Below, one piece after another: positions 13,754-41,518 of a stretch of DNA of 42,701 nt; within the stretch, counting starts at the first letter, position 1, and each line of letters opens with the position of its first letter. Below the pieces are notes generated by a model, which did no database searches, had not been told where the DNA came from, and saw only the letters and a program-made list of their open reading frames with translations. The position numbers and the translations under genes were made by a program. This DNA comes from Planctomycetaceae bacterium (GTDB lineage: Bacteria; Planctomycetota; Planctomycetia; Pirellulales; Thermoguttaceae): assembly GCA_031282385.1 (NCBI GenBank), contig JAITDV010000477.1, positions 1-42,701 of the forward strand. Reading direction: 5' to 3'.

Positions 13754-15313
13754 ATGAGAAAGTTGGTATTTATTTCTGTTCCGGGTTTACGCAGAATAGA
13801 TGTTGAGCGATTACCCGAGCTTCGCGCAATGACTTCTAGTGGCGGCATGGCAACTCTTACGTCTGGATTTCCGGCTGTTACTTGTCCGGTACAATCAAAT
13901 ATGACAACAGGCGTTCGCCCTGATCAACATGGAATAGTTGCAAATGGTTTATATCTCAAAAACGTTGATAAAGTTGATTTGGAATTGCGGTTGGAGTCGA
14001 AATTGTCGGGTGCAAAATTGTTCGGTAATATTGTTTCGAGTTGTAATTTTGATCCTGAAATTAAGCAGCCGGTTTGGCCTAAATCTGAAAATTTGCCATA
14101 TATTGAGATGTGGACTTCACCGAATTCAGCGGTGGAATCGCCCCAAATCTGGGACGTGTTACGCGGTAAACAAGACAATACATATCAACGGCAATTTAGA
14201 ATTCGGCGGCGCAAAAGTATTAATACAGGTTTGCCAATATTTCAGTCCGTGCGTATAAACAGAAATTCAAGGGTGAACAAGTTAAAATCTGCGGTTTGGT
14301 TTGCGTTATTGAGTAAATTTTGTCTTGCCGATTACGTGTGCAATTTTGCGCCGATTCATAATCCTGACGGTAGTGAATCGTTGTGGTGTTATACCAGACC
14401 GTATCTTTTTTATGGCGGCTTGCGGGACAAGTTGGGGCATTTTCCTGTTCAAGGTTACTGGGGACCGCTGGCTGGACAATCCGCGTCGGAATGGATAGTT
14501 GATTCTGCGATTATCGGCGCAAATAAATTTAAGCCGGATTATTTTTACGTATATGTACCGCGTCTTGATTACACGCCGCAAAAATTCGGTGCAAACGCTT
14601 CGGAACTTTCGGCGGACTTGGCGGATTTGAATAAGTTGTTTGTCAAATTACGTGCGGGATTCACTGAAGCATTGGGTTGCGAACCGACTTGGTTGATTGC
14701 GGGCGAGTATGCGGTAACTGATGTTAGTTCTGTTGTTTATCCGAATCGGATTTTGCGGGAGATGGGCTTGCTGTCTATCGAAGAACGCAATGGGCAAGAG
14801 TATTTGTTGCCGAGCAAGTCGCGTTGTTTTGCACTGTGCGATCATCAATTTTCACACATCCATTTTAATGACGCCGATCCGCAATTGATGCAACGTGTTG
14901 CAGATAAATTCCGTAACGAGTCCGGGATTGACGAAGTGTTGGTCGGAGATGAAAGGGCAAAATATAACTTGACGCATCGGAGAAGCGGAGAAATCATACT
15001 CATTTCAGAACCAGACAGTTGGCAAGCGTATTATTTTTGGAATGATGATTCAAAAGTGCCGGAATACGCACGCAAAGTTGATATTCATCGTAAACCGGGT
15101 TATGATCCGGTGGAGCTTTTTTTTGATCGCGAAACAATGTCTGTACCGCTCGATGCAAATTTGATTCGCGGTTCTCACGGCGCACCGGCTCGCGATAATT
15201 CGCAGAAAACTGTTGTTCTTGCAAGTAAACCGGAATTACTTGCAGACAAAAAACAATTCGATGATATTGATATGTTCAATATCGTAAATCAATTCTTTAA
15301 GGGAAAAGTTTAG
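13754..15313 (+). CDS. alkaline-phosphatase superfamily / nucleotide pyrophosphatase-phosphodiesterase family protein
   Basis: N-terminal VFISVPGLR...SGFPAVTCPVQSNMTTG...HGIVANG is typical of the type I phosphodiesterase (Phosphodiest) family. The ORF contains a basic, low-complexity insert that looks MITE-derived (see findings). Confidence 0.6.
   Translation: MRKLVFISVPGLRRIDVERLPELRAMTSSGGMATLTSGFPAVTCPVQSNMTTGVRPDQHGIVANGLYLKNVDKVDLELRLESKLSGAKLFGNIVSSCNFDPEIKQPVWPKSENLPYIEMWTSPNSAVESPQIWDVLRGKQDNTYQRQFRIRRRKSINTGLPIFQSVRINRNSRVNKLKSAVWFALLSKFCLADYVCNFAPIHNPDGSESLWCYTRPYLFYGGLRDKLGHFPVQGYWGPLAGQSASEWIVDSAIIGANKFKPDYFYVYVPRLDYTPQKFGANASELSADLADLNKLFVKLRAGFTEALGCEPTWLIAGEYAVTDVSSVVYPNRILREMGLLSIEERNGQEYLLPSKSRCFALCDHQFSHIHFNDADPQLMQRVADKFRNESGIDEVLVGDERAKYNLTHRRSGEIILISEPDSWQAYYFWNDDSKVPEYARKVDIHRKPGYDPVELFFDRETMSVPLDANLIRGSHGAPARDNSQKTVVLASKPELLADKKQFDDIDMFNIVNQFFKGKV
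14181..14287 (+). mobile_element. candidate degenerate M1 copy embedded in frame in the 13754-15313 CDS
   Basis: Right end AGAAATTCAAGGGTGAACAAGTTAAAA matches GGAAATTTAAAGTGTGAACAGTTTAAAA at about 21/27 positions. GCGCAAAAG matches the GCGTAAAAG core. Total length is 107 nt as in canonical copies. Left half is weak. Confidence 0.35.
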
Positions 15314-15348
15314 GGGTTAGGAACGAAGCAGACGAAAACGCGGCGTTC

Positions 15349-15622
15349 TATACTGTTCGGACTACAATTTGTGTGACTCAAGAGTGTAAAAGCCCGCTTT
15401 CCGATAGGTAAGCAGGCGGTGGTAAAAGAAAATTAAAGTTGACCTTTTCGCTAACCTGTAGGAGACCACCCCTAACCCCTCCGAAGGAGGGGAATTATTC
15501 CCCACCTTCGGAGGGGTTAGGGGTGGTCTCGGAGGAGTTAAAGGCGGTTTTTCGTTGTAGGTTTTTTGTTGCGTTGATGTATTTTTAGGTTAGAGAAAAG
15601 GTCTAGTGTAAACAGTTTAAAA
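15349..15622 (+). mobile_element. M1 MITE copy split by an M2 insertion
   Basis: M1 left part 15349-15439 and right part 15605-15622, interrupted by M2 (15440-15604). Ends 3 nt before the YitJ-type gene start. Confidence 0.9.
15440..15604 (+). mobile_element. M2 MITE copy (165 bp) nested in M1, AGT/AGT flanks
   Basis: Near-consensus copy: AGACCTTTTCGCTAACCTGTAGGAGACCACCCCTAACCCCTCCGAAGGAGGGGAATTATTCCCCACCTTCGGAGGGGTTAGGGGTGGTCTCGGAGGAGTTAAAGGCGG...TTTTTAGGTTAGAGAAAAGGTCT. Confidence 0.95.
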
Positions 15623-15625
15623 ATC

Positions 15626-17473
15626 ATGTTGAAAAATAATTCGCGTAAATTTATTGAAACGTTAAATAGTAGATTGCTTGTTTTTGATGGGGCGATGGGG
15701 ACAGAGCTTTATCGGCAACATGTATTTACGAATCGTTGTTTTGAGGAGTTGAATTTATCTGAACCTGAATTGATAAGCGGAATTACCCGTTCTTATCGTG
15801 ACGCCGGAGCAGACGTGTTGACGACCAACACGTTTGGCGCAAATCGTATTCGTCTTGAGAAGTATGGTCTTGTGGAGCGTTTGGTGGAGATAAATCGTGC
15901 AGGTGCCGGTATTGCGCGTGAGGTTGCGGGTGATAGCGGTGAATTATTTGTTGCGGGTTCGGTGGGTCAATTTCCGGCGTCAGGTTACACGGACGATGAG
16001 ATTGAGACTTTCATTCTTGAGCAAGTTGATACTCTTTGGGAAGGCGGTGTTGACTTTATAATTTTTGAGACTCAATTATCGCGTGAAGCAATGAGACGTT
16101 GTGCGGCGGCGATGCTCAAACGGGTTGAAATTCCGTTTGTGCTTTCTTGTGCGGTAATTTCAGGCAATGAATCAGCGGCGGGCGAATCTGTGCCGCGTCT
16201 TTTGATGCCGTTTGGGGATGATGTCGGCAAGCCTGTAGCGATGGGCTTGAATTGCGGTTCGGGACCGGAAGGGCTTTTGCAAGCTGCTGAAATTGCGGTC
16301 AAGGTTAATCCGTTGCCGCTTATTGTTCAACCCAATGCGGGAATACCCAAAGAATTTGATGGTCGTCAGATTTATTATTCGTCGCCGGAGTATGCGGCTT
16401 CTTATGCAATGCGGTTGGTGTCATTGGGAGTAGCTGCGGTGGGTGGTTGTTGTGGAATTTCGCCGGAGCATATTCGTGAAATTGCAAAGATGATCAAACC
16501 GCTTGCCAAAGCTCGATCAACACATTCGATTTTGCAAGCAGTTGAGTCAGACGTGACGGAACAACCGGAGTTATTGTTTCAGGAACGGTCGCGGTTTGCG
16601 TGGAAACTTTCGCGGCGTGAATGGACGACTAGTGTTGAAATTGTGCCGCCGCGCGGATATGACATGGAAAGTACGATTGAGAAAAGTAAAAAATTGCATC
16701 GTCAAGGAATAGATGCGATTAATTTACCGGATGGTCCCAGAGCAAGTTCAAGGGTTTCGTCGATTGCGGTTGCGAGCAGGATTTTGAGCGAGGCGCATAT
16801 TGAGCCGATTTTACATTTTTGTTGTCGGGACAAAAATCTGATTGGGATGCAAGCTGATCTTCTTGGTTGTGCGGCGTTGGGGATTAGAAATTTACTTTTT
16901 ATTACGGGTGATCCGCCGAAACTTGGTTCGTATCCGAATGCAACTGGTGTTTTTGATACTGATTCAATTGGAATTTGTTCATTGCAACGCCGTCTTAATC
17001 GTGGTGTTGATCTTGGAGGTCAAGCGATTGTGCCGCCGACGAATGCTGTAATTGGGGTTGGTCTTGATCCGAATGCGTTGGATCGGAAACGTGAGGTTGA
17101 CAGATTTAGGCAAAAGATTGATGCAGGTGCAAATTTCGCAATTACGCAACCAGTATTTGATCCTGAAGCGTTGATTAGATTTTTGGATGAGGTTGGTGAT
17201 TGTCCGATTCCGATTTTAGCGGGGATATGGCCATTGGCAAGTTTTCGCAATGCGGAATTTATGCAGAATGAAGTTCCGGGCGTGATTGTTCCTGATGCGA
17301 CAATGAACAGGATGGAAGCGGTTTCAAAACGATCAAAGGAAGAACAAGTTATGGTTGGAATTGAGATCGCCGGTGAAATGATTTCGGTAGTCAAAGACAG
17401 AGTGAACGGCGTGCAAGTTAGCGCACCTTTTGGAAAAATAGAAATTGCCCTAGCTGTATTAAACAACACATAA
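15626..17473 (+). CDS. bifunctional homocysteine S-methyltransferase / 5,10-methylenetetrahydrofolate reductase (YitJ-type)
   Basis: N-terminal LVFDGAMGTELY...GGCCG homocysteine-methyltransferase domain fused to a C-terminal MTHFR domain (SVEIVPPRG...LFITGDPP...ITQPVFD). Confidence 0.85.
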   Translation: MLKNNSRKFIETLNSRLLVFDGAMGTELYRQHVFTNRCFEELNLSEPELISGITRSYRDAGADVLTTNTFGANRIRLEKYGLVERLVEINRAGAGIAREVAGDSGELFVAGSVGQFPASGYTDDEIETFILEQVDTLWEGGVDFIIFETQLSREAMRRCAAAMLKRVEIPFVLSCAVISGNESAAGESVPRLLMPFGDDVGKPVAMGLNCGSGPEGLLQAAEIAVKVNPLPLIVQPNAGIPKEFDGRQIYYSSPEYAASYAMRLVSLGVAAVGGCCGISPEHIREIAKMIKPLAKARSTHSILQAVESDVTEQPELLFQERSRFAWKLSRREWTTSVEIVPPRGYDMESTIEKSKKLHRQGIDAINLPDGPRASSRVSSIAVASRILSEAHIEPILHFCCRDKNLIGMQADLLGCAALGIRNLLFITGDPPKLGSYPNATGVFDTDSIGICSLQRRLNRGVDLGGQAIVPPTNAVIGVGLDPNALDRKREVDRFRQKIDAGANFAITQPVFDPEALIRFLDEVGDCPIPILAGIWPLASFRNAEFMQNEVPGVIVPDATMNRMEAVSKRSKEEQVMVGIEIAGEMISVVKDRVNGVQVSAPFGKIEIALAVLNNT

Positions 17474-17527
17474 AAAATTCGTCTTACTTTCATGCGAATT
17501 TTGTATTTGGTTGCGATGATACGAAAT

Positions 17528-18238
17528 TTAGTTGCGGGTTGTTATAACGGTTGCGTTCCAGAGGAAATCGTAGAGCGGTTTCAACAATATAAAATTGCCA
17601 ATCAGAAAATCAACAAGTTTTGCCGAAAACAGAATTTTATCCGGTTTACGGTTTCCAAGAACGGCAATAGATTTGCTTTGATACCATTTATCAATTATTG
17701 CGGGATGCTCGGACGGAATGCGGCGTTTATAGCAATCGGATTCTAGTTTAAGATTTCTGGTTCGTTGTATTGGTTCAATAATTCTACGAAATTGTTCTGG
17801 ATTTTCGTCAATCATTCTGCGAAAATTCCGCATTGTTGTTGCTTGTGCGGAGTACATGCCCATTCCGAACATGTATTCGTACTCATCAAATTGAAAAAAA
17901 TAAGTAGGCATTGCTGTCCAACACTCAACATTACGCTTGAAAGCAAACCAAACTCGCGGACGATACGGAGACTTGTCCGCAGAAAAACGTGTGTCCCGAT
18001 AAATACGCGAAACAACACGATGCGGCGACGTTATCACCAACGAATCAAGTTCTGAAATCATTGGTGAAATTGTTTGTACAAGTTGTTTCATTGGATCGGA
18101 AACAAAACGAACATATCGATCCCGATTATCGGAAAACCATTCGCGGTTATTGTGGCGGCTCAAATCATGGAAAAAATTAATTCCAGATTGGGAAAATCCA
18201 TTGAACAATGAAGTATCAAAACTTACTTTAGCTGACAT
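17528..18238 (-). CDS. DUF2461 (TIGR02453) family protein
   Basis: FFHDLSRHNNREWF...YRDTRFSADKSPYRP pattern characteristic of this conserved hypothetical family. Confidence 0.65.
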   Translation of the reverse strand: MSAKVSFDTSLFNGFSQSGINFFHDLSRHNNREWFSDNRDRYVRFVSDPMKQLVQTISPMISELDSLVITSPHRVVSRIYRDTRFSADKSPYRPRVWFAFKRNVECWTAMPTYFFQFDEYEYMFGMGMYSAQATTMRNFRRMIDENPEQFRRIIEPIQRTRNLKLESDCYKRRIPSEHPAIIDKWYQSKSIAVLGNRKPDKILFSAKLVDFLIGNFILLKPLYDFLWNATVITTRN

Positions 18239-18324
18239 ATTAAAATATTGTAACTATTCAGCCGATGGATGTCTTCAATCCAAAAAAAACACAATTGTTT
18301 GGAAAGTTAGTGTCTCCAAAGGAT

Positions 18325-18355
<31 letters not shown>

Positions 18356-18374
18356 ATTCTTACAAATTCTGCAA

Positions 18375-21300
18375 TTATAATGTTGCCAGTAGTGAGCGTA
18401 CGCGGATTTTTACTGCGCCTAGTTGTGCGCCTTCGTCAATTTTCAGCAACGTGTGTGTTTTGCCTTTGTATGCAAGTATTTCTTCAACCTGTTCTGCGGT
18501 TACAGCGTCAAGTCCGCAGCCAAATGAATTTAATTGAATTAGTTGGAAACCGGCGGGTTGATTTGCTACGAATGTTGCTGCTCTATACAATCTTGCATGA
18601 TAACTCCATTGATCAACTACTCGCAACGGAAACATCAATTCGCTGCCTAAGTGGGCGATTGAGTCTCCTGATAAAACTGCTGCGCCGCTTGAAACAATCA
18701 ATTCAGGTATTCCATGATGTATCATCGGGTCTAAATGATACGGACGTCCAACCAACACAATTACTGTCAGTTCTTTATTCGACTCGCATGATTTTACAAA
18801 CTCTTCACCTTTGTCCCGAACTTCTTTGCGGTAATTATTCTGCAGCTCTATTGCTTTTGCCAACGCGTTTTTGATTTCGCGGTATGAAACATCGAAACCG
18901 TGAAACTCTTCGTAAAGACGTTTGGTTAAAATTTTCGCATCCGCCGCCGGCAAAAAAGGCGAAATAAATTCAATTCCGCCATCACGTATTTCATCTATAT
19001 TCAATCGCAATAATTCAGGATAAGAACCTACTACCGGACAATTATGTGTAAAAAGAGTATCCGAAAATTCACGTTGTTCAAATGGTAATGCCGGATGAAA
19101 TATCCGTTTCACGCCGCGTTCAATTAAATTTATAATATGACCATGTGCTAACTTGGCAGGAAAACAAAGCGTTTGCGACGGAATGCTGCTCAAGCCTTTG
19201 TTGTACAATTTAGGTGTTGAAGGTGCGGACAACACGACTCTGAATCCTAATTCCGTTAAAAAACCGAACCAAAACGGATAAATCTCGAACATATTCAAAA
19301 TACGCGGTACTCCGATCTCGCCGCGTATCGACTTGTGCAAGTCAAGCGGCTCGTAGAAATTAAACAAGCGGTCGTATTGATACCGGAAAAAATTCGGTAA
19401 TTGAACACGGCTTGAATTTTCAGTCCACACAACTGAATCTGTAATCGAAGGTGAATTTTCTGTTACAGTAATTGGTTTCGTGGGGGCAACATTTCCAACG
19501 GCGGATTTTAATTTCGTATTAGGAACCGGATCAATTGCAAATTTACTCGGACCGCGTTCACATTTATTACCTGACACAAATACGCGGTTATCTGGAAAAG
19601 AGTGAACGGCAAGCAGACATTTATTTGAGCATCCGGGACAACGTTTTAATTTTGAATCCATTTTGAAGGCGGGCAAATCATCGCGTGAAATAATTCCGGA
19701 AATCAATTTATACGGTTTATCGGCTGCACGTTCACGGGCAATAAGCGATGCGCCGAATGCTCCCATCATGCCGGCAATATCTGTGCGATAAACTTCGCGA
19801 TCTATTAAAAATTCAAGCGCACGAAGTACTGCGGGGTTGTTGAATGTGCCGCCTTGAACCATGATGTTTTTACCGAGTTCGTTGAAGTCGGTTATTTTTA
19901 ATACTTTGTAGAGCGCATTTTTCGCAACTGAATAAGCCAAACCCGCGGAAATATCTGCAACTGAAGCATTTTCTTTTTGGGCTTGTTTTACTTTTGAATT
20001 CATGAAAACTGTGCAGCGTGTACCGAGGTCAATAGGCGACGCCGCGAACAACGCTTCTTTGGCAAAAGAAACAATATCGTATCCAAGCGAACCCGCAAAC
20101 GTTTCAAGAAAAGAACCGCAACCGGAAGAACACGCTTCGTTCAGAATTATTTTGTCAACTTTATCATTTTTGATACCAATACATTTTATATCTTGTCCGC
20201 CGATATCAAGAATAAACGAAACATCAGGCACGAAATATTTTGCCGCGCGGAAGTGAGCAAGCGTTTCAACTTCGCCGTCATCGATTCCCAACGCGGCTTT
20301 GAGTATGGTTTCGCCGTAACCTGTAACGCATCCGCGGCGAAGCCGTGATTCTCTTGGAATTTGGGAGTAAATATCTGCAATAATCTTTAGGACGGCGTTG
20401 ATTGGATCGCCTTCGTTGGGACCGTACCAGGTTGCGAGTATTTGTGAATCTGCATTGATCAAGACGGCTTTAGTTGTTGTTGAGCCTGCGTCAATTCCAA
20501 GAAACAAGTCGCCTGATGCTGTTGAAATATCGGCGCGTTTGGCTTTGAATGAATTGTGTCGTGCTGTAAATTTAGTAAATTCTTCTTGCGACATAAACAA
20601 TGGTGCAAGTCGCATTGTTTCTTCGTAGTTATTGTGGTCGAGTACGTTATTGACGCGGCAGCAGAGTTCGGCGGCGGGGATTGCGCGGTCGTTTTCGGAA
20701 AGAATTGCAGCTCCGAGCGCAACATAATAATGTGAATCTTCAGGCACGATTATACTGTTTTCATTCAAGCCTAATGTTTCTGTAAATCGTTTACGCAATT
20801 CGGGCAAAAAATGTAGAGGTCCGCCCAAAAAAGCCGTAGGACCGCATATTTTACGTCCGCAAGCGAGTCCGCCGATGGTTTGATCGACTACGGCTTGCAG
20901 AACGCTTGCGGCAACATCTTCGCGGGAAGCGCCTTCGTTTAGCAGCATGGTAACATCGGACTTGGTGAATACTCCGCAGCGTGCTGCTATTGGGTAAATT
21001 GTTTTATGGCGTGAGGCGAGATCGTTTATACCTGCAGCGTCGGTTTTGAGAGTTACGGCAATTTGGTCAATAAATGCACCGGTACCGCCAGCGCAAGTTT
21101 CGTTCATACGTTGGTCAATACTTCCTTCGAGAAAAGTTACTTTTGCGTCTTCGCCGCCTAATTCGATTGCGACTGTGGTTTCGGGGATGAATGTTGTGAT
21201 TGCGTGAAGAGCTGCAACAACTTCTTGAACAAACGGGATTCCTAATTTTTGGGAAACGCCGATTCCTGCGGAACCTGTCATGGCGAGTGTGAAAGCTTTA

Positions 21301-21497
21301 TCTGGGAAAACTTGGAAAACTTCGGATACAAGTTTAGCCAACGCTTGAAAAACACCGGAAAAATGACGAGTGTAACGCGACCAAACTATTTCGCCTCGTA
21401 CCGCGTCAAAAACTACTGCTTTCACTGTCGTTGAACCAACATCCAATCCAAGCCGGAATTGAGAAATTTCTTCAGTACCTGATTTCATTGACAACAT
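18375..21497 (-). CDS. acyl-CoA dehydratase activase-related protein (two BcrAD/BadFG ATPase domains plus a DUF2229-like C-terminal domain)
   Basis: Two acetate/sugar-kinase-type ATPase repeats (LGLDVGSTTVKAV and LGIDAGSTTTKAV, each followed by a GG(E/Q)D motif), then a long C-terminal domain as in CoA-substrate-specific enzyme activases. Confidence 0.75.
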   Translation of the reverse strand: MLSMKSGTEEISQFRLGLDVGSTTVKAVVFDAVRGEIVWSRYTRHFSGVFQALAKLVSEVFQVFPDKAFTLAMTGSAGIGVSQKLGIPFVQEVVAALHAITTFIPETTVAIELGGEDAKVTFLEGSIDQRMNETCAGGTGAFIDQIAVTLKTDAAGINDLASRHKTIYPIAARCGVFTKSDVTMLLNEGASREDVAASVLQAVVDQTIGGLACGRKICGPTAFLGGPLHFLPELRKRFTETLGLNENSIIVPEDSHYYVALGAAILSENDRAIPAAELCCRVNNVLDHNNYEETMRLAPLFMSQEEFTKFTARHNSFKAKRADISTASGDLFLGIDAGSTTTKAVLINADSQILATWYGPNEGDPINAVLKIIADIYSQIPRESRLRRGCVTGYGETILKAALGIDDGEVETLAHFRAAKYFVPDVSFILDIGGQDIKCIGIKNDKVDKIILNEACSSGCGSFLETFAGSLGYDIVSFAKEALFAASPIDLGTRCTVFMNSKVKQAQKENASVADISAGLAYSVAKNALYKVLKITDFNELGKNIMVQGGTFNNPAVLRALEFLIDREVYRTDIAGMMGAFGASLIARERAADKPYKLISGIISRDDLPAFKMDSKLKRCPGCSNKCLLAVHSFPDNRVFVSGNKCERGPSKFAIDPVPNTKLKSAVGNVAPTKPITVTENSPSITDSVVWTENSSRVQLPNFFRYQYDRLFNFYEPLDLHKSIRGEIGVPRILNMFEIYPFWFGFLTELGFRVVLSAPSTPKLYNKGLSSIPSQTLCFPAKLAHGHIINLIERGVKRIFHPALPFEQREFSDTLFTHNCPVVGSYPELLRLNIDEIRDGGIEFISPFLPAADAKILTKRLYEEFHGFDVSYREIKNALAKAIELQNNYRKEVRDKGEEFVKSCESNKELTVIVLVGRPYHLDPMIHHGIPELIVSSGAAVLSGDSIAHLGSELMFPLRVVDQWSYHARLYRAATFVANQPAGFQLIQLNSFGCGLDAVTAEQVEEILAYKGKTHTLLKIDEGAQLGAVKIRVRSLLATL

Positions 21498-21741
21498 TTG
21501 AAATTATTGTTATTTCGTTGATATACCGAAAGCCCGAATGTGAGCAACTAAAAAATAAAACAGTCAGTGGAATTTTCGTAACAGTATCATTATTTTTGAA
21601 GTGGAGATGCTGTGTGACCGAGTGGTTGTTTATATTTTAGCGTTTCCGTGATGATGTATCAATCGCCTACGGGATGAGGGTTAGATTTTGGAACTATTTG
21701 GTTTCAATATTTTTTGTTTTATTGGGGAATTTATTTGTAAT

Positions 21742-21933
21742 AGACCTTTTCGATAACCTGTAGGAGACCATCCCTGACTCCTCCGAGGGGCGGGAATTAT
21801 TCCCATTACGCGGAGGCGTATTCTTATTCCTCACCTTCGGAGGGGTTAGTGGGGGGATCGGAGGAGTTAAAGGCAGTTTTTCGTTGTGGTTTTTTTGTTG
21901 TGTTGATGTATTTTTAGGTTAGCGAAAAGGTTT
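21742..21933 (+). mobile_element. M2 MITE copy (192 bp, enlarged irregular hairpin), AAT/AAT flanks
   Basis: Both TIRs present, tail conserved, direct AAT on both sides. Confidence 0.85.
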
Positions 21934-22067
21934 AATGTAAGCCGTGGGGGCGGTGAAATGGAAAAACTCTTTATTTTTTGCCAAGTTGCGGATATGTGGG
22001 AAACGTGGCGGATTTGAAATTAATTTAAGTTATCAAAATTGGTCTTGTGTTGTTTGGCGGGAAATTG

Positions 22068-22145
22068 TTATACTTCGTTTGGGGCGGATTTCTGGCGGGT
22101 GTGCGGTTGGTGGTAAATGAAATTTAAAATGTGAACGGTGTAAAA
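22068..22145 (+). mobile_element. M1 degenerate copy
   Basis: TTATACTTCG left end and GGTAAATGAAATTTAAAATGTGAACGGTGTAAAA right end; the middle is replaced or degraded. Confidence 0.5.
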
Positions 22146-22154
22146 TAATTGAAA

Positions 22155-31603: not shown

Positions 31604-31637
31604 TTTCAAATCTCCATTTCTCATAAAATTTAGTTGC

Positions 31638-31746
31638 TATACTCTTCAAATTTGCTTTTGAATTTCAGCTTTCCCTTTTTAACTTCCTTCCAAAAGACAA
31701 GCAGACAACAGTAAAGTAAAGTTAGAACATGAACAATTTCAAACCC
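31638..31746 (+). mobile_element. M1 MITE copy (divergent)
   Basis: TATACTCTTCAAATTTGC left end, AAGCAGAC, and right end GTTAGAACATGAACAATTTCAAAC. Length is 109 nt. Confidence 0.6.
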
Positions 31747-32056
31747 CCAACTCCACAACCAATATCATTGTCTCAAGAAAGTTATACTCTATGAGGATAA
31801 TACCATTTTTTATTTTTTTGAAAATACCAGGATTAGTGTTGTGCTTTTTTGCAATTTAACTTATAATTCCGCTCTGCGTTGGTTGACGCAGTGCAAGGTT
31901 GCCGGATTTAGAATTTTTGTAACAAAAAAATCCGGCAATGTTAAGTTGCGGAAAAGTTGGTTGAGTTCTGTCTAAATTGTGTTTGTACAGAAAGAGAACT
32001 TTCCGTACCAATCAGTCAGTTATTGCAATTACTTTTCATACTGTTCAGAAAAAAAA

Positions 32057-32160
32057 TTAAACTGCTCACACTTGAAATTTCCTTCACCGCCGCCCGCTTG
32101 ACTACATACAAGCAAGCTTTGACACTCTTGAGCCGCACAATTCATAGTACGAAATGTATA
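32057..32160 (-). mobile_element. M1 MITE copy
   Basis: Reverse match. The stem is replaced by the compensated pair GCTTG (32096-32100) / CAAGC (32109-32113). Confidence 0.8.
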
Positions 32161-32219
32161 TTGCAATAATTTTTGTAACGTTTAATTCAATTCACTAACA
32201 AATTGAAAAGGAGACGAAA

Positions 32220-33315: not shown

Positions 33316-33357
33316 CACAATGTACAAATAAACGTGATTTTTTTGAAAGGAGATTTT

Positions 33358-33786
33358 ATGAATTTGAAAATATATTTTATCGGTTTGTTGTTGGCAGTAG
33401 TTGTAATATTTTCGGGTTGCGGATCAAAGGGCGTGCAAACTGTCAAAGTAACAGGAAACATAACAATTGACGGTAACCAAATTGAACAAGGTTCGGTCAA
33501 GTTTATTGATGTTGAAGGAAAAACTCCGACAGGAGGCGGAAGTATTTCCAAAGGAACTTATGCCGCAAATGTTCCTTTGGGCAAAAAAAAGATTCTCGTT
33601 TTAGGGACGAAATTAGTCGGCAAAGAGCCCTTATTTGCAGATATGCCGGATAGTCCTGTCAACGACAAATACGAACAAGTTACTCCCGACGCTTACAACA
33701 GTTTTGAATTGACACCGTTAGAAGCAGAGATAACCGCTGCAATTGACAATTTGAATTTTGATTTGTTGTCAAAATTCAGAAAGTAA
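33358..33786 (+). CDS. small putative lipoprotein
   Basis: AAAGGAGA SD before the ATG at 33358. Signal peptide ends in the lipobox-like VIFSGC. Mature part is beta-rich (VKVTGNITIDG...). Confidence 0.6.
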   Translation: MNLKIYFIGLLLAVVVIFSGCGSKGVQTVKVTGNITIDGNQIEQGSVKFIDVEGKTPTGGGSISKGTYAANVPLGKKKILVLGTKLVGKEPLFADMPDSPVNDKYEQVTPDAYNSFELTPLEAEITAAIDNLNFDLLSKFRK

Positions 33787-33850
33787 ACAAATTGTCCATA
33801 AACTTTCACAAACTTACATTAATTTTTTGTGAGAATTTATTTATCCATTA
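33787..33850 (+). repeat. R3-related repeat, directly upstream of the SD of the DUF1559 gene at 33876
   Basis: CTTTCACAAACTTACATTAATTTTTTGTGAGAATTTATTTATCCATTA shares the CACAAA...TTTGTGA(R)AATTTAT...ATCC layout. Confidence 0.45.
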
Positions 33851-33875
33851 ATCAAATTTACAAAGGAGAAATATT

Positions 33876-34988
33876 ATGAAAAATTTGACAAAGAAAAATG
33901 GGTTCACACTTGTTGAACTTTTAGTTGTGATAGCGATCATTGGTGTTTTGATTGCTATTCTTTTGCCCGCAGTACAAGCGGCACGGGAAGCATCCCGACG
34001 CACACAATGCAGCAACAAATTAAGACAATTCGCACTTACATTGCACAACCACCATGACACGCAAGGAACGTTACCCTGTGCTTCAAACGGTTACGGCGGT
34101 ACTGATCAAAATAAACATCGAATCAGTGCATTTATGCCGTTGTTGCCGTTTATTGAAATGACAACACTCTATGAACGCTTTACCGGTTCATATTCTTCAA
34201 TTTCACCTTGGGCAAGTAACGGTAACGTGTTTTTTACGGATTTAAGCGAGATATTTGGTTGTCCGTCTGATCCGTTTCGTACCAGCAAAGTAAATGAAAC
34301 CGCCAAAACCAGTTATCGTATATCGTTTGGAGATTGGGCGGATCGATGTAATCAACACACTGATGACAATCCGCGCGGCGCTTTCGTCGGTAAAATTGGC
34401 GTATCGCGAGATTTTACCGCCGTTACAGATGGAACAAGTAATACTATTGCGTTGTCCGAAGCAACAATAGCAATGAAAAAAGGAGCTTTCTTACAAGGGA
34501 CTGTTGCCAAAAAAATAACATCGTTACCTACAGAAAACCAAAAACCGGACAGTACATTCGACTACAATAGTTGTTTCAATACCGCTAATTGGAAGTCTTA
34601 CAACTCCGGAGTTACGGTTTTCAACGATCAGAGTGGAACACGTTGGGGAGATTGTTATGTGATATTTACGGGTTTTTCAACAATATTCCCGCCAAATTCG
34701 CCTTCATGTGCAAGAGATGACTCTGCATACACTGCCGAACACATTCTACGTACAATCGACAGCAAACAGGTCAATAAAGCCAACAATGTTACCATCATGT
34801 CCGCTTCAAGCTACCACACCAATGGAGTCAATGCAGCATTTTTGGATGGAACAGTACGTTTCGTCAACAATGGAGTCGATTCAGGAACCGACCGAACATT
34901 GAAGTGTCCGACATCCGGTCAATCGCCATTTGGAGTTTGGGGCGCTTGCGGTTCAATAAATGGTGAAGAAACAGCTGCAATACCATAA
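33876..34988 (+). CDS. DUF1559 domain protein with prepilin-type N-terminal cleavage/methylation motif
   Basis: [51 protein letters not shown] is the canonical planctomycete DUF1559 N-terminus. AAGGAGA SD present. Confidence 0.85.
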
Positions 34989-35107
34989 ATATTATTACAG
35001 CTTATTGTATTCCATTAGTAAAGCTTCTTTCACTAATCACAAAAATAGTATATCAGAATTACTAATTTCAAAAAAAACTCCATGCTTGTTTTTATTTTGG
35101 TATTGTT

Positions 35108-35268
35108 ATATACTGCCCGTCCTATAAATTGTGAGACTCAAGAGCGCACACTGCTCGGACAATAAAATAAATTGCGCGATTGCAGAGCGTAAAAGCATGA
35201 TTTCCAATAGAGGAACAGGCGGCGGCAAAAGAAACACCAAGTGTGAACGGTTTAAACTGTTCACACTT
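35108..35268 (+). mobile_element. M1 copy with internal duplication plus an inverted solo right TIR
   Basis: The ATAAATTG(T/C)G..AGAGCG segment occurs twice. The right end is followed head-to-head by a second right TIR, giving the palindrome AAGTGTGAACGGTTTAAACTGTTCACACTT. Confidence 0.75.
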
Positions 35269-35336
35269 GTGTTTTTGATAACAAATTTGGACTTGTCTTT
35301 CTTTCACTTCCCACAACCTACTTACAAAAAGCCAAA

Positions 35337-37019
35337 ATGAAAAACTTCCGTTTCAAACAGATCAATCATATTTTTGTGATATTGTTACTAATATTTGTTG
35401 CCAATCTTTTTTTTATCACGGGCAATTCAATTGAATATTGTTCGGCACAAGAAAGCGATTTATCCAATGTTGTTACACGAGTTGTTTCTTCTGATGTTGC
35501 CCATCGACCGGTTGTTTTGCCGCGTAATTTGTTTGAATCCGGAGAAGAGTTTCGGGCGGCTTGCCGTATTGATGAGATTTTGATCAAGGCTCTTAAACGT
35601 TACAATCTTGAACCCGCACCAATTTGCAGCGACGAAGTATTTATTCGCCGTGTCTATTTTGACGTTATCGGGACGTTGCCGACACAACAAGAAGTCAAAA
35701 GATTTCTCAATGACCAATCGCCGAATAAACGTACAAAAATTATCGATGCCGTTCTGAATCGCAATGAATTTGCCGATTATTGGGCAATGAAATGGTCGGA
35801 CTTGCTTCGGGTAAAGGCGGAATTTCCAGTGAATTTGTGGCCCAACGGCGCAGTGAATTATTACAATTGGATTCACGACGCAATACGCACTAATATGCCT
35901 TACGACCGTTTTGCCCAAACCCTCCTAACCGCTAGCGGAAGCAATTTCCGAAACGGCGCCGTCAACTTCTACCGTGCTGTTCCCGCCAAAGACCCAGATA
36001 CATTAGCAGAAATAACCGTACAAACCTTTCTCGGCGCGCGTACCGCAACTTGGTCGCAGCAAAAACGTAATGATATTGCAAAATTTTTCTCTCGAATAAG
36101 ATACAAAGAAACCGCACAATGGAAAGAAGAAATCGTTTTCTGGTTACAAAAACCGCTTGACTCGCACGATGTTGTGTTTCCCGACGGTTCCCGCGCAACC
36201 ATTCCTGAAAATCATGACCCTCGCGAAATATTCGCAAAATGGCTCATTTCGCCGGAAAATAAAAACTTCAGCCAAAATATCACAAACAGAATTTGGTTTT
36301 GGTTGTTCGGATTCGGAATCGTTCATGAACCGGATAATTTTTGCAGCGACAACCCGCCCGTTTATCCCGAATTACTCGATTATCTTTGTACCGAGTTGGT
36401 CAAATCAAAATATAACCTTAAACATATCTATCGCCTCATTCTCACGTCCAACACTTATCAACAATCTTCCATTCCAAAAATAAATAAAAAACAAAATCGC
36501 GATGTTGAATTATTTGCTTCGTATCCAATTCGCCGTCTTGAAGCGGAAGTGTTACAAGATGCGTTAGCGCAAATTTTTGACGTGCAAGTTGTCTATCAGA
36601 GCGAAGTGCCGGAACCATTCACCAGAATTCCAGCTCGATACCGCACAATCGTTTTACCCGACGCAAGCGTAACAAGCTCCTTCCTCGAAATGTTCGGACG
36701 CGCCTCAAGAGATACCGGTCTTGAATCTGATAGAAATAATAACGTTACCGAAGCACAACAACTGTTCATGCTCAACTCAACAGAAATAAATAATTGGATA
36801 AAACGATACGCTTCAAAAATAAAATTTAACCGAATACAAAACAAAAAAAATCAATCGCTCGACTCCATCTGGTTGACTATCCTATCACGTTACCCAACAG
36901 AAACAGAACTAAAAATCATCGAAAAAGATTTCCAACAAAAAGAAATTCCAACACCTCAAAAAATTCAAGACTTAATCTGGGCAATAATAAACTCAAAAGA
37001 ATTTTTTTGTAAACATTGA
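35337..37019 (+). CDS. DUF1549 / DUF1553 domain protein
   Basis: RVYFDVIGTLPTQQEVKRFL...NEFADYWAMKWSDLLRV (DUF1549), and a C-terminal LFMLNS...LSRYPTETEL...IWAIINSKEF (DUF1553-like). N-terminal signal or anchor. Confidence 0.8.
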   Translation: MKNFRFKQINHIFVILLLIFVANLFFITGNSIEYCSAQESDLSNVVTRVVSSDVAHRPVVLPRNLFESGEEFRAACRIDEILIKALKRYNLEPAPICSDEVFIRRVYFDVIGTLPTQQEVKRFLNDQSPNKRTKIIDAVLNRNEFADYWAMKWSDLLRVKAEFPVNLWPNGAVNYYNWIHDAIRTNMPYDRFAQTLLTASGSNFRNGAVNFYRAVPAKDPDTLAEITVQTFLGARTATWSQQKRNDIAKFFSRIRYKETAQWKEEIVFWLQKPLDSHDVVFPDGSRATIPENHDPREIFAKWLISPENKNFSQNITNRIWFWLFGFGIVHEPDNFCSDNPPVYPELLDYLCTELVKSKYNLKHIYRLILTSNTYQQSSIPKINKKQNRDVELFASYPIRRLEAEVLQDALAQIFDVQVVYQSEVPEPFTRIPARYRTIVLPDASVTSSFLEMFGRASRDTGLESDRNNNVTEAQQLFMLNSTEINNWIKRYASKIKFNRIQNKKNQSLDSIWLTILSRYPTETELKIIEKDFQQKEIPTPQKIQDLIWAIINSKEFFCKH

Positions 37020-37024
37020 ATATT

Positions 37025-37216
37025 AGACCTTTTCGCTAACCTGTAGGAGACCACCCCTAACCCCTCCGAAGGAGGGGAGTAAGAAGATGTCTCCGAAGGG
37101 GGGGAGTAATTCCCCTCCATCGGAGGGGTTAGGGGTGGTCTCGGAGGAGTTAAAGGCAGTTTTTTGTTGTAGTTTTTTTGTTGCGTTGATGTATTTTTAG
37201 GTTAGAGAAAAGGTCT
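37025..37216 (+). mobile_element. M2 MITE copy (192 bp, insertion in the hairpin loop), ATT/AAT flanks
   Basis: Starts 5 nt after the stop codon of the DUF1549/DUF1553 gene. Confidence 0.9.
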
Positions 37217-37605
37217 AATAGTAATATTTCAGTTGCGGGATTCAGTTGTTTAGGAAAAAGGGTTTTGGGAATAGGAACGAAGCAGACAAAAAAGCAGCGT
37301 TCTAAAGTAAACAACCCTTATTTGTCCAAATTCCCTCAGTAGCAGACAACGCCCTCTAATGATGCTCCTATTTTTCCGATGGCGGTGCATAAGACAATAT
37401 CAAACAAACATAAGGGCGAGTTGGGGAGAATTTTGGGCTACTAATGGTAATTTGACAAAAGGATTGGAATATTAGAGCCGCTCGGGAAATTATGTTGTTC
37501 CGCTCGGATTTATTGGGCTTGAGTAACAGAATTGTTGACGATAATAAACATGCGACTGAATGGATACGATTAGAGATAACCATTAAAAATTTTGGAGATA
37601 AAAAT

Positions 37606-38904
37606 ATGAAGCGTCGTGAATTTTTGTCGGCGGGACTTGGCGGAGTTTTGTTGGGTTCGTTGGATAAAGTGGGTTTGGCGGCGGAGTCGAAACCTACGTT
37701 CAAAGCGGGCAAGGCGAAATCAGTGATTCAAATTTGGATGTGGGGAGGTCCTTCGCATCTTGAGACTTTTGATCCGAAGCCTGGTGCCGGTTACGATTAT
37801 TGCGGTCAATGGGATAAACCGATTCAGACCAATGTTTCAAGAATTGAGATTAGTCAATCGCTTCCGATGTTGTCGCGATGTGCTGATTTATATTCTGTGA
37901 TACGTGGGATGACGCATGGAACGAATCACCATGAACAAGCATCTTACGTTATGCAAACCGGACGAATGCCCGGCGGCGGTGTTGTTTATCCGTGTGTTGG
38001 TGCGGTTATTGCCAAAGTTAAGGGATATGATGCGGGTTATGATTTAGCGATTCCGCCTTATATTGTGCTGACAACATCGCAGGGGCGGTTTTCAGAATGC
38101 GGTTTTTTGGGACCGAAGTACAAACCGTTTATTACGGGCGGCGATCCGAGTAAAACGCCGTTTTTAGTTTCCGGTTATGTTGTCGAAGGCATAACTGATA
38201 AACGGCAACGTGAACGTAAAGAACTTCTCAATAGACTTGATTTATTCGGCAAGGCTGCTGAAACTAATTCGCTGATCGGCGAGGTTGAGGCGGCTCGCGA
38301 AAATGCGTTTAATCTGATTTTCGGTAACACGGTAAAGATTTTTGATATTAGCAAGGAATCGGAAAAAAGACGTAATGATTACGGAATGAATTGGTTTGGT
38401 CAAGCATGTTTGATGGCGCGGCGATTGGTGCAAAACGGCGTTCCGTACATAACGATTAATTATCGCGGTTGGGACACGCACAAACGGCATTTTGAAACAT
38501 TAACACGGCGGCAAGTTGAATGGGATCGCGGATTATCAATGTTGTTACGTGAACTTGCGGATTTGGGCTTGTTGGACTCGACAATTGTGTGGTGGGGCGG
38601 TGAATTTGGGAGAACGCCAAAAATTGATTGGGCGGCTCCTTGGCTTGGCGGACGCGGACATTTTGGGCGTTGTTTCAATGTCTTGCTTGCCGGCGGCGGA
38701 TTTAAAGGCGGATGCGTTGTTGGTGAAACAGACAAAACAGGGGAAAATATCATTGCAAGACCGGTCTATCCGCAAGATTTGCTCGGCAGCATCTATCAAA
38801 TGTTAGGAATAAATCCCGACGAAAAATTGCCCAACGAAAAAGGATTCAACGTACCAGCAATGCCGCCGGCGTCAAAATCAGGACGATTAAATGAACTGGT
38901 TTAA
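37606..38904 (+). CDS. DUF1501 domain protein (Tat signal, sulfatase-like)
   Basis: GGAGA SD and ATG at 37606. Twin-arginine MKRREFLSAGLGG, then WMWGGPSHLETFDPKP and WGGEFGRTP motifs typical of DUF1501. Confidence 0.85.
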   Translation: MKRREFLSAGLGGVLLGSLDKVGLAAESKPTFKAGKAKSVIQIWMWGGPSHLETFDPKPGAGYDYCGQWDKPIQTNVSRIEISQSLPMLSRCADLYSVIRGMTHGTNHHEQASYVMQTGRMPGGGVVYPCVGAVIAKVKGYDAGYDLAIPPYIVLTTSQGRFSECGFLGPKYKPFITGGDPSKTPFLVSGYVVEGITDKRQRERKELLNRLDLFGKAAETNSLIGEVEAARENAFNLIFGNTVKIFDISKESEKRRNDYGMNWFGQACLMARRLVQNGVPYITINYRGWDTHKRHFETLTRRQVEWDRGLSMLLRELADLGLLDSTIVWWGGEFGRTPKIDWAAPWLGGRGHFGRCFNVLLAGGGFKGGCVVGETDKTGENIIARPVYPQDLLGSIYQMLGINPDEKLPNEKGFNVPAMPPASKSGRLNELV

Positions 38905-38980
38905 GAAATTCGGAGTTATAATTTGGAATTGTTGTCGTGAAAAAGCACGTGACTGAATAGTTTTTTTTTACAATTTAACG

Positions 38981-41518
38981 ATGAACCGTATATTATTTTT
39001 TACAACGTTTATTATTTTATTTGGGATGAATTTCTTGCCGGTTGCGATTGTTTTTGCGCAGTCGCGTGATCCGAAAATCGCGTATATTTATCCGGCGGGC
39101 GGGCAACGCGGAACAACATTTGAGGCGTTACTTGGCGGTAGATTGATTACCAAGCCGGTTGATGTATTAATTTCGGGCAACGGTGTTCGTGCAAAAATTG
39201 TAAAAAGTGTTAACGGTGTTGTCATCAATGATCAAGCAGCCAATAAAGTTGCAAGAGACATTTACGACGACGCAAAAAAACAACTCGAAGCCAATTCATT
39301 GCCGAATAAAAATGAGACAAAAAAACAAATTCGCAACGAAAATTCAGATTCAAAACAAGAAAGTAAAATCGACAAAAAGATTTCTGATAACAAAAATTCT
39401 GAAGAAGTGGAGTTACCGTCTCGTAATGAGATTATGCAGAAGTATTTGTATTTTGACCGTCTTTTGCAACCTTCGGCGGATGATTTGCAATTTATTTTTT
39501 ACGAATATTTTTCACCGCGTCCGAACAAGAGACCGGTTGAAGGAATGACGCAAGGCGTGGTGATTGAGGTAACGATTGATGCGGATGCTGTGATTGGCGA
39601 GCGGGAGTTGCGTTTGTTTACTGCAACCGGAATGACTAAGCCGATCAAGTTTATTGTTAGTGATATTCGTGAAGTGCGTGAGTTTGAGCCGAATGATTTT
39701 GATGCGGTGCCGAATAAACAGTTTGAGGCGATGGGTCAAATACGTTCAGATATTTTACCGAAAAATTTACGTTGTCTTGAACCGCAAGACTTACCGGTGA
39801 TTTTCAATGGTCAGATTCGCAATGGCGATGTTGATCGTTTTTCTTTTAGGGCGGTTGCCGGACAAAAGGTAGTTATTGGAGTGCAAGCTCGTCAATTGAT
39901 TCCTTATCTTGCGGATGCGGTTCCGGGTTGGTTTCAAGCGGCGGTAACGCTTTTTGATTCGGCGGGCAAAAAAATTACTTCGGCGGCGTCGTATCGTTTT
40001 AATCCTGATCCGGTGATTTTTTTCGACGTACCTCAAAGCGGGATTTATCAAGTTGAGGTTAGGGATTCGGTTTTTCGCGGGCGTGATGATTTTGTGTATC
40101 GTTTATCGGTTGGGGAGACTGCTGTTGTTACGTCAATTTTTCCGTTGGGCGGTAAGTCGGGAACACCGACAACCGCTCAGATTGAAGGTTGGAATTTACC
40201 GTCGAAAACAGTACGTTTTGATACCAACCCCGATAAAAAAGGAGTCCAAACAATATCCGTGTTGCACAAAAAAACGTTATTGAATCCGATACATTATGTT
40301 GTTGATGATTTACCGGAGTTGGTAGAGTTGGAATCGAATGACCGTATGGAGTCGGCGCAAAAAATAAAGTTACCGGTTGTTGTCAATGGTCGGATTGATT
40401 CGCGAAGAGATGTTGATTATTTTTCGTTTGCGGGCAAGTCGGGTGAAACGGTAATGCTTGACGTTATGGCGTTATCGCTTGGATCGCCGTTGGATTTAAG
40501 TTTGGAAGTTTTGGATTCGGCGGGCAAATTTGTTGCGGGAAACGATGATCATGCCGGAAGTGATGGATTGAATGTTGGATTGGAAACGCATCATGCGGAT
40601 CCGTATTTAGTGTTTCGGATTCCGGTTGATGGGATTTATTTTGTCAGGTTATGCAATTTACTACAGGAAGGCGGCAAAGAATTTTCTTACAGAATTAACG
40701 TTACAAATAAACGGAATAAAGTTACCGTTTACACAGAAACGTCAACTCTAAACTTACAGGCGGCAACACAATCAATTAAATTTTTCGCGGACAGACGCGG
40801 CGGATTTGATGGGGAAATAAGAGTAAGGTTGGCGGAAAATCAATCGGATGAATTTATTTTGGATGGTACAAAATTTCAACGTGATTCCGATGAAGTTGTG
40901 GGAACGTTATCGGTTTTGAATTTTAGCGGTGCTGGTAAATTTGTTCCGGTTTTTTTTGAGGCTGTTCTTGAAACGGCGAATGGCGAAGAGGTTTTTCCTG
41001 TTATTGCAACGGATGATTTTGAGCAAGCGTTTATTTATCATCATTTGGTACCGGCGGAGAATTTTTTTGTTGTGAGACCGCGAAACTGGCAGATACAGCG
41101 AAGTTTAGGATTTGCTTTTAAGGAAGTTATTGATAACGAGAGGAATGAATTATTTTTTATTACGTTAATTCAGGGCGGTAAATCTGAACTTCGTTTACCG
41201 TTTGGCGGCAAGTCGGCGGGGAAGAATAATATCAAAGAAAACAAAGAACGAAAAAAAACGTCGGCGATTACTTTTCCGCAAGATGATTTGAACAAAGTTT
41301 CGTTTATGTTATCAGAACCGCCGGAGGGAATAACGTTGGAGAAAGCGAGTTTCGACAAAAAGGAATTAAAACTAACTTTCGCCGCAACAAAATCAATCAA
41401 AAAAAACACAACCGGAAATATTATCGTCAACATAAATTTCCAACCCGATAAAAACAAACCAACAACTCAATCACTAGGAACATTACCGGCAATAAAATTC
41501 AAAATAAATAACCCGTAA
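38981..41518 (+). CDS. secreted hypothetical protein with two pre-peptidase C-terminal (PPC)-like domains
   Basis: Signal peptide. Two units of the pattern EPND/ESND...NG(Q/R)I...DVD(R/Y)FSF...G...V, as in PPC domains. A K/N/E-rich low-complexity insert lies at about aa 75-150. Confidence 0.55.
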   Translation: MNRILFFTTFIILFGMNFLPVAIVFAQSRDPKIAYIYPAGGQRGTTFEALLGGRLITKPVDVLISGNGVRAKIVKSVNGVVINDQAANKVARDIYDDAKKQLEANSLPNKNETKKQIRNENSDSKQESKIDKKISDNKNSEEVELPSRNEIMQKYLYFDRLLQPSADDLQFIFYEYFSPRPNKRPVEGMTQGVVIEVTIDADAVIGERELRLFTATGMTKPIKFIVSDIREVREFEPNDFDAVPNKQFEAMGQIRSDILPKNLRCLEPQDLPVIFNGQIRNGDVDRFSFRAVAGQKVVIGVQARQLIPYLADAVPGWFQAAVTLFDSAGKKITSAASYRFNPDPVIFFDVPQSGIYQVEVRDSVFRGRDDFVYRLSVGETAVVTSIFPLGGKSGTPTTAQIEGWNLPSKTVRFDTNPDKKGVQTISVLHKKTLLNPIHYVVDDLPELVELESNDRMESAQKIKLPVVVNGRIDSRRDVDYFSFAGKSGETVMLDVMALSLGSPLDLSLEVLDSAGKFVAGNDDHAGSDGLNVGLETHHADPYLVFRIPVDGIYFVRLCNLLQEGGKEFSYRINVTNKRNKVTVYTETSTLNLQAATQSIKFFADRRGGFDGEIRVRLAENQSDEFILDGTKFQRDSDEVVGTLSVLNFSGAGKFVPVFFEAVLETANGEEVFPVIATDDFEQAFIYHHLVPAENFFVVRPRNWQIQRSLGFAFKEVIDNERNELFFITLIQGGKSELRLPFGGKSAGKNNIKENKERKKTSAITFPQDDLNKVSFMLSEPPEGITLEKASFDKKELKLTFAATKSIKKNTTGNIIVNINFQPDKNKPTTQSLGTLPAIKFKINNP

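Follow-up and report, generated by a model that had tools for sequence, protein, structure and literature searches.

Mirror-image silent-site regimes alternate at the kilobase scale in a Planctomycetaceae contig

How do genes that lie side by side on one DNA strand come to use opposite sets of synonymous codons? The question is raised by contig JAITDV010000477.1 of a Planctomycetaceae bacterium (assembly GCA_031282385.1), of which positions 1 to 42,701 were analysed (42.7 kb, referred to here as the window) together with 168 fetched loci. It is confirmed that the silent sites of this stretch form a mosaic of a G/T-rich regime and its A/C-rich mirror image, with a switch from one to the other every 0.2-8 kb. 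The genes that carry this mosaic include DUF1549/1553, DUF1501, and DUF1559, which are typical of planctomycetes, as well as genes for housekeeping enzymes. Two window proteins, looked up by exact sequence, are not on record. The nearest relatives are Planctomycetaceae/Thermoguttaceae genomes from termite-gut metagenome assemblies, and when words were sampled from an 8-kb stretch, 84% of them were present in one termite-gut metagenome run; the host lineage of termite-gut planctomycetes has about 40% G+C. In the source run, unique window DNA has a word depth of approximately 8, which is even at 7-10x. Public RNA runs were also searched for the window stretch, and none that contains it was found.

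The two regimes are clearly seen in the GC skew at 4-fold degenerate sites, which was calculated on the coding strand for each of 23 genes. The counts of G and C at these sites are 91:13 in GT9 and 110:25 in YitJ, and 29:79 in FGGY and 11:37 in DUF1559a. The highest skews are those of GT9 (+0.75), the fucosidase (+0.65), and YitJ (+0.63), the lowest those of FGGY (-0.46), DeoC (-0.52), and DUF1559a (-0.54), and IF3 is neutral. The heterogeneity across the 23 genes is very large for G/C (chi-square 323, 22 degrees of freedom, p = 3e-55) and is also found for A/T (p = 1e-7). All 18 degenerate amino acids move the same way between the gene classes: one class has more GAG, AAG, CAG, NNT, and NCG, and the other more GAA, AAA, CAA, and NNC. 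At 4-fold sites pooled by class, the G/T-ending genes have G.345, T.332, A.212, and C.112, and the A/C-ending genes have G.140, T.279, A.324, and C.257. Given that the classes are near mirror images that differ by transitions (G/A and T/C), they carry the signature of C-to-T and A-to-G changes on one strand. The four 60-base line counts with which the preliminary description of this DNA had illustrated the contrast are exact (15901-15960, G 25 and C 8; 27121-27180, G 8 and C 15; 22741-22800, G 33 and C 7, with all seven C before G; 23101-23160, G 12 and C 15). Amino-acid composition is ruled out as the cause, given that all degenerate families shift together and that the shuffle test used for switches inside genes, in which synonymous codons are exchanged among positions of the same amino acid within each gene, keeps the amino acids fixed.

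That the mosaic does not follow gene orientation, as had been proposed, is true of the sign of the skew, and about 40% of the window genes have A/C-rich coding strands. It is not true of its size, since a coding-strand offset is present, and the G/T class lies beyond the mirror image of the A/C class. This offset is roughly 0.1 in the window, as estimated from the class means, and 0.24 in a 64-kb contig of a relative.

The spatial scale of the mosaic was determined by binary segmentation of the third positions on the plus strand, which divides the 42.7 kb into 24 segments of 0.15-8.4 kb (23 change-points). For every 10 kb of coding DNA there are 7.4 change-points, and the sign flips 5.15 times. 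The same measures are 0.49 and 0.13 for 52 loci of other phyla from similar habitats, 0.52 and 0.12 for 52 loci of other planctomycetes, and 2.4 and 1.17 for 13 related loci from independent assemblies. Among single relatives, locus L001 has four flips in 11.6 kb and L008 has four in 9.3 kb; indeed, the closest relatives (L001, L006, L008, and L167), which come from other samples and assemblies, are equally patchy. The earlier claim that the sign changes at a scale from below one to several kilobases is thus borne out, with a density far above that of the controls. When the gene-level signs are expressed in plus-strand terms they form about six blocks, with at least five block-level flips in 42.7 kb, and the six major block edges all lie within about 150 bp of intergenic regions.

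Comparisons with orthologues and between neighbouring genes show that the regime belongs to the DNA strand and not to the gene. The 4-fold GC skew of the activase gene is -0.26 in the window, versus +0.49 in L001 and +0.53 in L002, whose proteins are 85-87% identical to that of the window. Since orthologues this close have opposite signs, the regime is not intrinsic to the gene. The silent sites of this gene are saturated with respect to L001 and L002 (4-fold identity of 0.37-0.40). DUF1501 likewise has skews of -0.04 and +0.52 in orthologues of 81% and 84% identity, versus +0.30 in the window. Across the window and its planctomycete relatives, the skews of neighbouring genes are positively correlated when the genes have the same orientation (r = +0.38, p = 0.0016) and negatively correlated when they have opposite orientations (r = -0.44, p = 0.0065).

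The clearest case is the relative JAUNBR010000002.1, from which 64 kb of a 116-kb contig were stitched without conflict. Its plus strand is G-rich through all 29 genes of both orientations, with a mean skew of +0.59 (standard deviation, SD, 0.09) for the 16 plus-strand genes and of -0.12 (SD 0.14) for the 13 minus-strand genes, so that the strand term amounts to 0.35 and the coding-strand term to 0.24. Sign flips occur at only 0.4 per 10 kb, and every change-point falls at runs of minus-strand genes. Polarity is therefore independent of gene orientation, both in the neighbour correlations and in this contig, as is characteristic of an asymmetry of the replication type, and the uniform polarity over 64 kb indicates that the clade has a very strong asymmetry of the classical kind. 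The likeness to the strand dichotomy of Borrelia that had been noted for the window finds its best expression here. The window does not share this single polarity. No origin or terminus marker was recognized in the window, and a fuzzy search for dif-like sites, which included the gene-free island at 24.3-26.7 kb, gave no convincing match.

Non-coding DNA follows the same rule. The window contains many copies of two families of miniature inverted-repeat transposable elements (MITEs), M1 and M2, and these copies are enriched in the transitions predicted by the polarity of the block in which they lie (6.9% versus 3.8%, odds ratio 1.9, p = 0.0006; 2.7% versus 1.5%, p = 0.04, when only singletons are counted). 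Since non-coding copies follow the block polarity, the force acts on DNA and not on codons.

The account that we favour, with a probability of about 0.5, joins an extreme bias of the replication type, very frequent rearrangement, and a gene-internal profile. An unusually strong strand-asymmetric bias towards C-to-T and A-to-G changes would make one strand G/T-rich and its complement A/C-rich at silent sites, and a smaller term would always favour G/T on the coding strand. Gene order and orientation in the lineage of the window would be changing about as fast as silent sites saturate, so that blocks of one to several genes would keep the polarity of an earlier orientation, or would be part-way to the new equilibrium, and sign changes at the kilobase scale would result. 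A gene-internal profile conserved among orthologues would be added to this, the clearest part of it being the A-rich and G-poor last ~50 codons, and wherever the block term is weak or opposite the profile would cross zero and give rise to an apparent intragenic switch. The mirror symmetry of the transition type, the link to the DNA strand, the uniform polarity of the relative, the loss of synteny, and the conserved profile are shown by the data; we infer a tie between replication forks and the strand term, and also that the sign of each block was set by rearrangement and not by a local process. The earlier proposal of an extreme replication bias combined with rearrangement fits the multi-gene blocks best, given the 64-kb polarity of the relative and the scrambled gene order described below; it does not cover the sub-genic switches or the flip at 37004.

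For old polarities to persist as blocks, rearrangement has to be at least as fast as the saturation of silent sites. Synteny around the activase gene is indeed lost: within two genes on either side, none of the four testable neighbours is conserved in the group of the window (80-87% identity), and none of 49 in the sister group (85-90% identity). With 0 of 53 neighbours conserved, none of the relatives has a gene order close enough to that of the window for the blocks to be oriented. DUF1501 occurs in the two closest relatives (81-85% identity) without either of its cluster partners. Rearrangement is thus no slower than the saturation of silent sites. As a separate observation, the DUF2461 and activase genes adjoin on the same strand both in L004 (2-4092) and in the window (17528-21497), with their order swapped and their orientation unchanged, which is a local gene swap.

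Switches inside genes are also frequent. Of the 23 window genes, 10 are internally heterogeneous in the synonymous shuffle at p<=0.005, and a threshold of p<=0.01 is reached by 41% of the window genes, by 17% of those in related planctomycete loci, and by 3% of 312 genes from other phyla. The switch sites of the preliminary description were all found again at or close to their expected positions (near 35880, now 35910; about 38700, now 38428 and 38691; about 41250, now 41353; 20000-20260, now 20271; about 23050, now 23061). The residual profile along the activase gene is conserved, with a mean r of 0.24 among 18 planctomycete sequences and of 0.03 among 62 orthologues from other phyla, and r is 0.71 between the profile of the window gene and the mean profile of its relatives. 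A context set by protein sequence across phyla is rejected as the cause of this profile, because the mean of the 62 orthologues from other phyla is flat (r = -0.01 versus the planctomycete profile). For DUF1501, the profile, including an A/C-rich tail, is common to three orthologues that have different gene-wide offsets.

The end of the gene is where the profile is most distinct. Over the last ~50 codons the 4-fold sites change from A.25 to.41 and from G.27 to.15, T is reduced, and C is somewhat enriched (tail versus body, p = 1e-14 in the window and 5e-21 in the nearest relatives). These A-rich, G-poor ends are found in both gene classes, whatever the regime of the gene body, in the window and in L001-L003, L167, and L168; the signature is absent in the relative with clean polarity (p = 0.29) and slight in other phyla. 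A smooth gradient from the 5' to the 3' end is not present, as the departure is confined to the final tenth of the gene. Several tails are affected at all three codon positions and in their amino-acid make-up, one example being what we take to be the conserved C-terminal motif of the DUF1553 domain. As a consequence of the tail effect, the keto skew of the plus strand steps up at 17 of the 22 intergenic gaps of the window (p = 0.003). Its nearest relatives show such a step at 11 of 12 gaps (p = 0.001), and convergent gene pairs show it as well. Many of the intragenic switches are therefore not separate events; they belong to the orthologue-conserved profile, including the A-rich, G-poor gene ends, and an additive model with a context-dependent block term and a conserved gene-internal profile accounts for most of them. 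The profile and the signature at gene ends may be set by antisense or read-through transcription, or by termination signals of the Rho type.

Several observations weigh against the account based on replication bias and rearrangement. The first is the flip at 37004, which parts DUF1549/1553 (skew of -0.24, with a keto-amino skew of -0.54 in the last 130 codons) from DUF1501 (+0.30) and PPC (+0.51). The order DUF1549/1553 then DUF1501 is kept in 40 planctomycete loci, with PPC next in two of these, and the cluster is intact in the window. Given that order and orientation are conserved in these 40 loci, the edge at 37004 was not made by a simple inversion. The flip falls at an M2 copy (37026-37216), and the difference across it is far greater than that among co-oriented genes of the relative with clean polarity (SD 0.09). 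In addition, the A/C-ending genes of the window reach -0.54, which is below the mean of -0.12 of the lagging-type genes in that relative. The substitution signal of the MITEs comes mainly from sites where the consensus is G, and it is marginal when only singletons are used. The activase neighbours may overstate the scrambling if the activase gene is itself mobile. Finally, a profile that persists between orthologues whose silent sites have saturated points to a local force that is still at work, and not to history alone.

Because one flip sits in an intact conserved cluster, a local and persistent strand-specific mutational process, which makes the patches in situ independently of fork direction, stays a live rival, possible in our judgement and held with clearly less confidence than the account above. 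It could consist of the exposure of single strands by sense and antisense transcription or by R-loops, together with poor repair of deaminated bases, and the patch edges would then be the starts and ends of transcription or of another local DNA transaction rather than the scars of rearrangement. Besides the cluster flip, such a process is favoured by the conservation of intragenic profiles between orthologues whose silent sites are saturated, by the upward steps at gaps in both the window and its nearest relatives, convergent pairs included, and by tails that are altered at all three codon positions and in amino-acid make-up, as a mutational force would do. Nonetheless, the 64-kb contig is explained by a strand term and a coding-strand term alone, and FGGY, IspF, and DUF1559a would need more antisense than sense transcription, which is difficult for IspF given that it is essential. 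Furthermore, only the gene tail departs, with no matching effect at the head, and the step at gaps thus lacks the symmetry that bidirectional firing would predict. A more specific form, which we regard as speculative and give slightly less weight, is that silent-site polarity is set by strand-specific single-strand damage anchored at gene boundaries (antisense or read-through transcription, R-loops) in a lineage deficient in the repair of deamination. The patches, the A-rich ends, and the cluster flip would then be maintained in place, as heritable and possibly self-reinforcing states, and would not be relics of rearrangement.

It is doubtful that the patches came in by homologous recombination, or by conversion from paralogues, from source copies that lay in the opposite orientation to replication. 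Import would leave genes and clusters intact while changing the polarity of a tract of 0.3-10 kb, its edges are not tied to one kind of site and can lie within a gene or within the conserved cluster, and the patch sizes resemble recombination tracts. Sources are also at hand, since relatives at 80-85% nucleotide likeness, or paralogues, are present in the same sample at comparable depth, and planctomycetes carry multiple copies of the DUF1549/1553, DUF1501, DUF1559, and sigma-54 activator families. However, the identity of the activase protein to L001, L002, and L003 ranks alike in nearly every bin across the switch, with no sign of mosaic ancestry, and the profiles common to orthologues of activase and DUF1501 are unexpected from independent imports; so many silent sites differ between alleles of opposite regime that homologous exchange should be rare. 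An assembly chimera as the main cause is unlikely. The word depth is only about 8x, nearly every intergenic region holds a repeat with a word depth of hundreds to tens of thousands, and by our own tally a MITE is present in 7 of 7 gaps with a polarity flip versus 8 of 15 without one (Fisher p = 0.05), so that blocks from other places, orientations, or a sister species could have been stitched together at high-copy MITEs. Independent Logan contigs break at every MITE, and they neither confirm nor contradict any join across a MITE. The sub-genic patches, for which a chimeric assembly had also been considered, are a different matter, and here it is excluded, as each sub-genic switch lies inside a single Logan piece: the patch start at 11405 in the piece 10202-11817 and its end at 12050 in 11799-13486, the switches at 17302 and 20271 in a piece of 5113 nt from 15583 to about 20695 (by its length), and the PPC tail in a piece of 3157 nt (38469-41625). 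Moreover, the join across the M2 copy at 37026-37216 restores the gene order conserved in 40 loci, the depth of unique sequence is even, no second strain at 95-99% likeness is present in the sample, patchiness is also found in relatives that come from different samples and were put together by different assemblers, and mis-joining would reshuffle blocks but would not create two regimes. Translational selection or expression level is highly improbable as the source of the regimes. The A/C-ending class does use NNC and NNA throughout, which are often the optimal codons in many bacteria and which pair in Watson-Crick fashion with GNN and UNN anticodons, whereas G/T-ending codons are read by wobble. 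This explanation was rejected because orthologues at 85-87% identity show the opposite regime and neighbours of opposite orientation are anticorrelated; in addition, non-coding MITE copies follow the block polarity, and the explanation would assign high expression to a sugar kinase and the DUF1559 genes, while IF3 is neutral.

The map of the window, read from left to right on the plus strand, shows how these components combine. A first A/C-rich block (1473..8164) holds the 5' part of IF3, the histidine kinase, HydF, and SBF, all on the minus strand with G/T-rich coding strands, and its most extreme patch is 7948-8164 (keto-amino skew of -0.67). It is followed by a short G/T-rich block (8167..9758) with the single gene hyp305, which is bracketed by an inverted M1 pair (8438-8542, plus; 9809-9909, minus). 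This bracketing is consistent with inversion mediated by the repeats, and a block of a single gene does not allow it to be separated from a coding-strand effect. The next block (9761..13457) is A/C-rich and carries the sigma-54 activator and DeoC, both on the plus strand and A/C-ending; it includes a G/T-rich patch in the AAA+ domain (11405-12047), ends in an extreme A/C-rich tail (13166-13457), and is bracketed by M1 copies at 10128 (plus) and 13524 (minus). Inverted M1 pairs thus bracket two blocks, at 8.4-9.9 kb and 10.1-13.6 kb. The G/T-rich block 13460..23063 contains Phosphodiest, YitJ, and GT9 on the plus strand, all G/T-ending, and the activase gene on the minus strand, which is A/C-ending in its 5' 408 codons, with a neutral zone at 17302-20268. 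The 3' tail of GT9 (23066..23255, plus) is an example of the A-rich gene end, with a keto-amino skew of +0.59 before codon 304 and of -0.17 after it. In the A/C-rich block 24261..37001, FGGY, IspF, DUF1559a, DUF1559b, and DUF1549/1553 are on the plus strand and A/C-ending, and the fucosidase is on the minus strand and G/T-ending. Its left edge lies in a gene-free, M2-rich island (24336-26728), and the bias is weaker over 32622-36611 and extreme in the tail (36614-37001). The last block (37004..41350) is G/T-rich and holds DUF1501 and PPC, the 3' tail of PPC (41353..41506, plus) being A/C-rich at all three codon positions (keto-amino skew of -0.69).

The preliminary description had given the M1 and M2 elements a part in the making of the mosaic, and this was not borne out as a need: L006 and L008 have no match and L001 has one M2-like match of 28 bp, and all three are patchy. 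M1-like copies do occur in L167. As a direct cause the MITEs are rejected, given that relatives without them are patchy and that the polarity step at gaps is about +0.3 with or without a MITE; breakage and resection at hairpin repeats was set aside by reasoning, since the predicted polarity is opposite to that at gaps. The M2 copies have features of their own. In six of six unambiguous copies (6979-37216) the G/T-rich strand of M2 lies on the G/T-rich strand of the block (binomial p = 0.03), and in the gene-free island three plus-strand copies are followed by three minus-strand copies. The copies at 25387-25548 and 37026-37216 are the only ones with unmatched 3-bp target duplications, which are reciprocal (AAT|ATT and ATT|AAT), and these two copies bracket the A/C-rich block at 25.5-37.0 kb. 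As proof of recombination between them this is suggestive and too weak; recombination between two direct copies would give this pattern, and two chance point changes would as well. Summed over the M2 core (36988-37198), the word depth in the source run is about 43,000, compared with about 8 for unique DNA, and the sample must therefore hold thousands of copies of M2 or of close variants.

Two observations concern the annotation. A frame for rpmE (ribosomal protein L31) is found at 389-620 on the minus strand, downstream of infC and within a longer open reading frame call, with M1 copies on both sides. The open reading frame called for DUF1501 (37492-38904) has 470 amino acids, and its closest homologues have 425-445; translation therefore probably starts some 30-38 codons further downstream than 37492.

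If the account based on rearrangement is true, this lineage is extreme both in strand bias and in gene-order change, and its silent sites are a gene-by-gene record of past orientation. It would then offer a natural system for the rate at which skew re-equilibrates, and a test of the disputed reading of inversions from GC skew. Methods that rely on codon usage to recognize foreign DNA, to estimate expression level, or to bin contigs would be misled in such genomes. The standard picture of replication plus inversion leaves three features uncovered, namely the orthologue-conserved profiles, the A-rich gene ends, and the flip in an intact cluster. If these are mutational and local, they would indicate a strand-specific process tied to gene boundaries that is not described in bacteria.

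Rho-dependent rut regions are C-rich, G-poor, and unstructured as RNA. By analogy, the 3' ends of the window genes may be likened to them, being strongly G-poor and somewhat enriched in C on the RNA-like strand; unlike in rut regions, it is A that changes most, rising from.25 to.41, and T is lost. Combined replication- and transcription-associated skews from cytosine deamination have been quantified (PMC2031905). The present case is similar in its additive strand and coding-strand terms (0.35 and 0.24 in the relative) and in its transition-type changes, C to T and A to G, and differs in the very large amplitude in the window, where the 4-fold GC skew reaches 0.75. To our knowledge, an A-rich and G-poor stretch over the last ~50 codons is not part of the description of deamination skews.

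A codon dichotomy between leading and lagging strands under strong replication skew is described for Chlamydia muridarum (PMC2089121) and Lawsonia intracellularis (PMC2671203), and also for Borrelia burgdorferi. As in these, it is the DNA strand, rather than the gene, that decides between two mirror regimes, and the 64-kb contig of the relative is exactly so. In Borrelia, Chlamydia, and Lawsonia, the sign is not known to change anywhere but at the origin and the terminus, whereas in the window it changes about five times per 10 kb of coding DNA, also inside genes. Local reversals of GC skew have been read as a record of inversions (Merrikh & Merrikh 2018, PMC6220195). The window resembles such reversals in that its blocks are opposite to their neighbours, their edges lie in intergenic DNA that bears repeats, and gene order is unstable. 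Skew anomalies mediated by repeats are also known, for instance in Yersinia pestis. Unlike reversals that are read as inversions, those of the window are far denser, occur inside intact genes and inside an intact cluster, sites that leave no room for an inversion breakpoint, and are in part conserved between orthologues.

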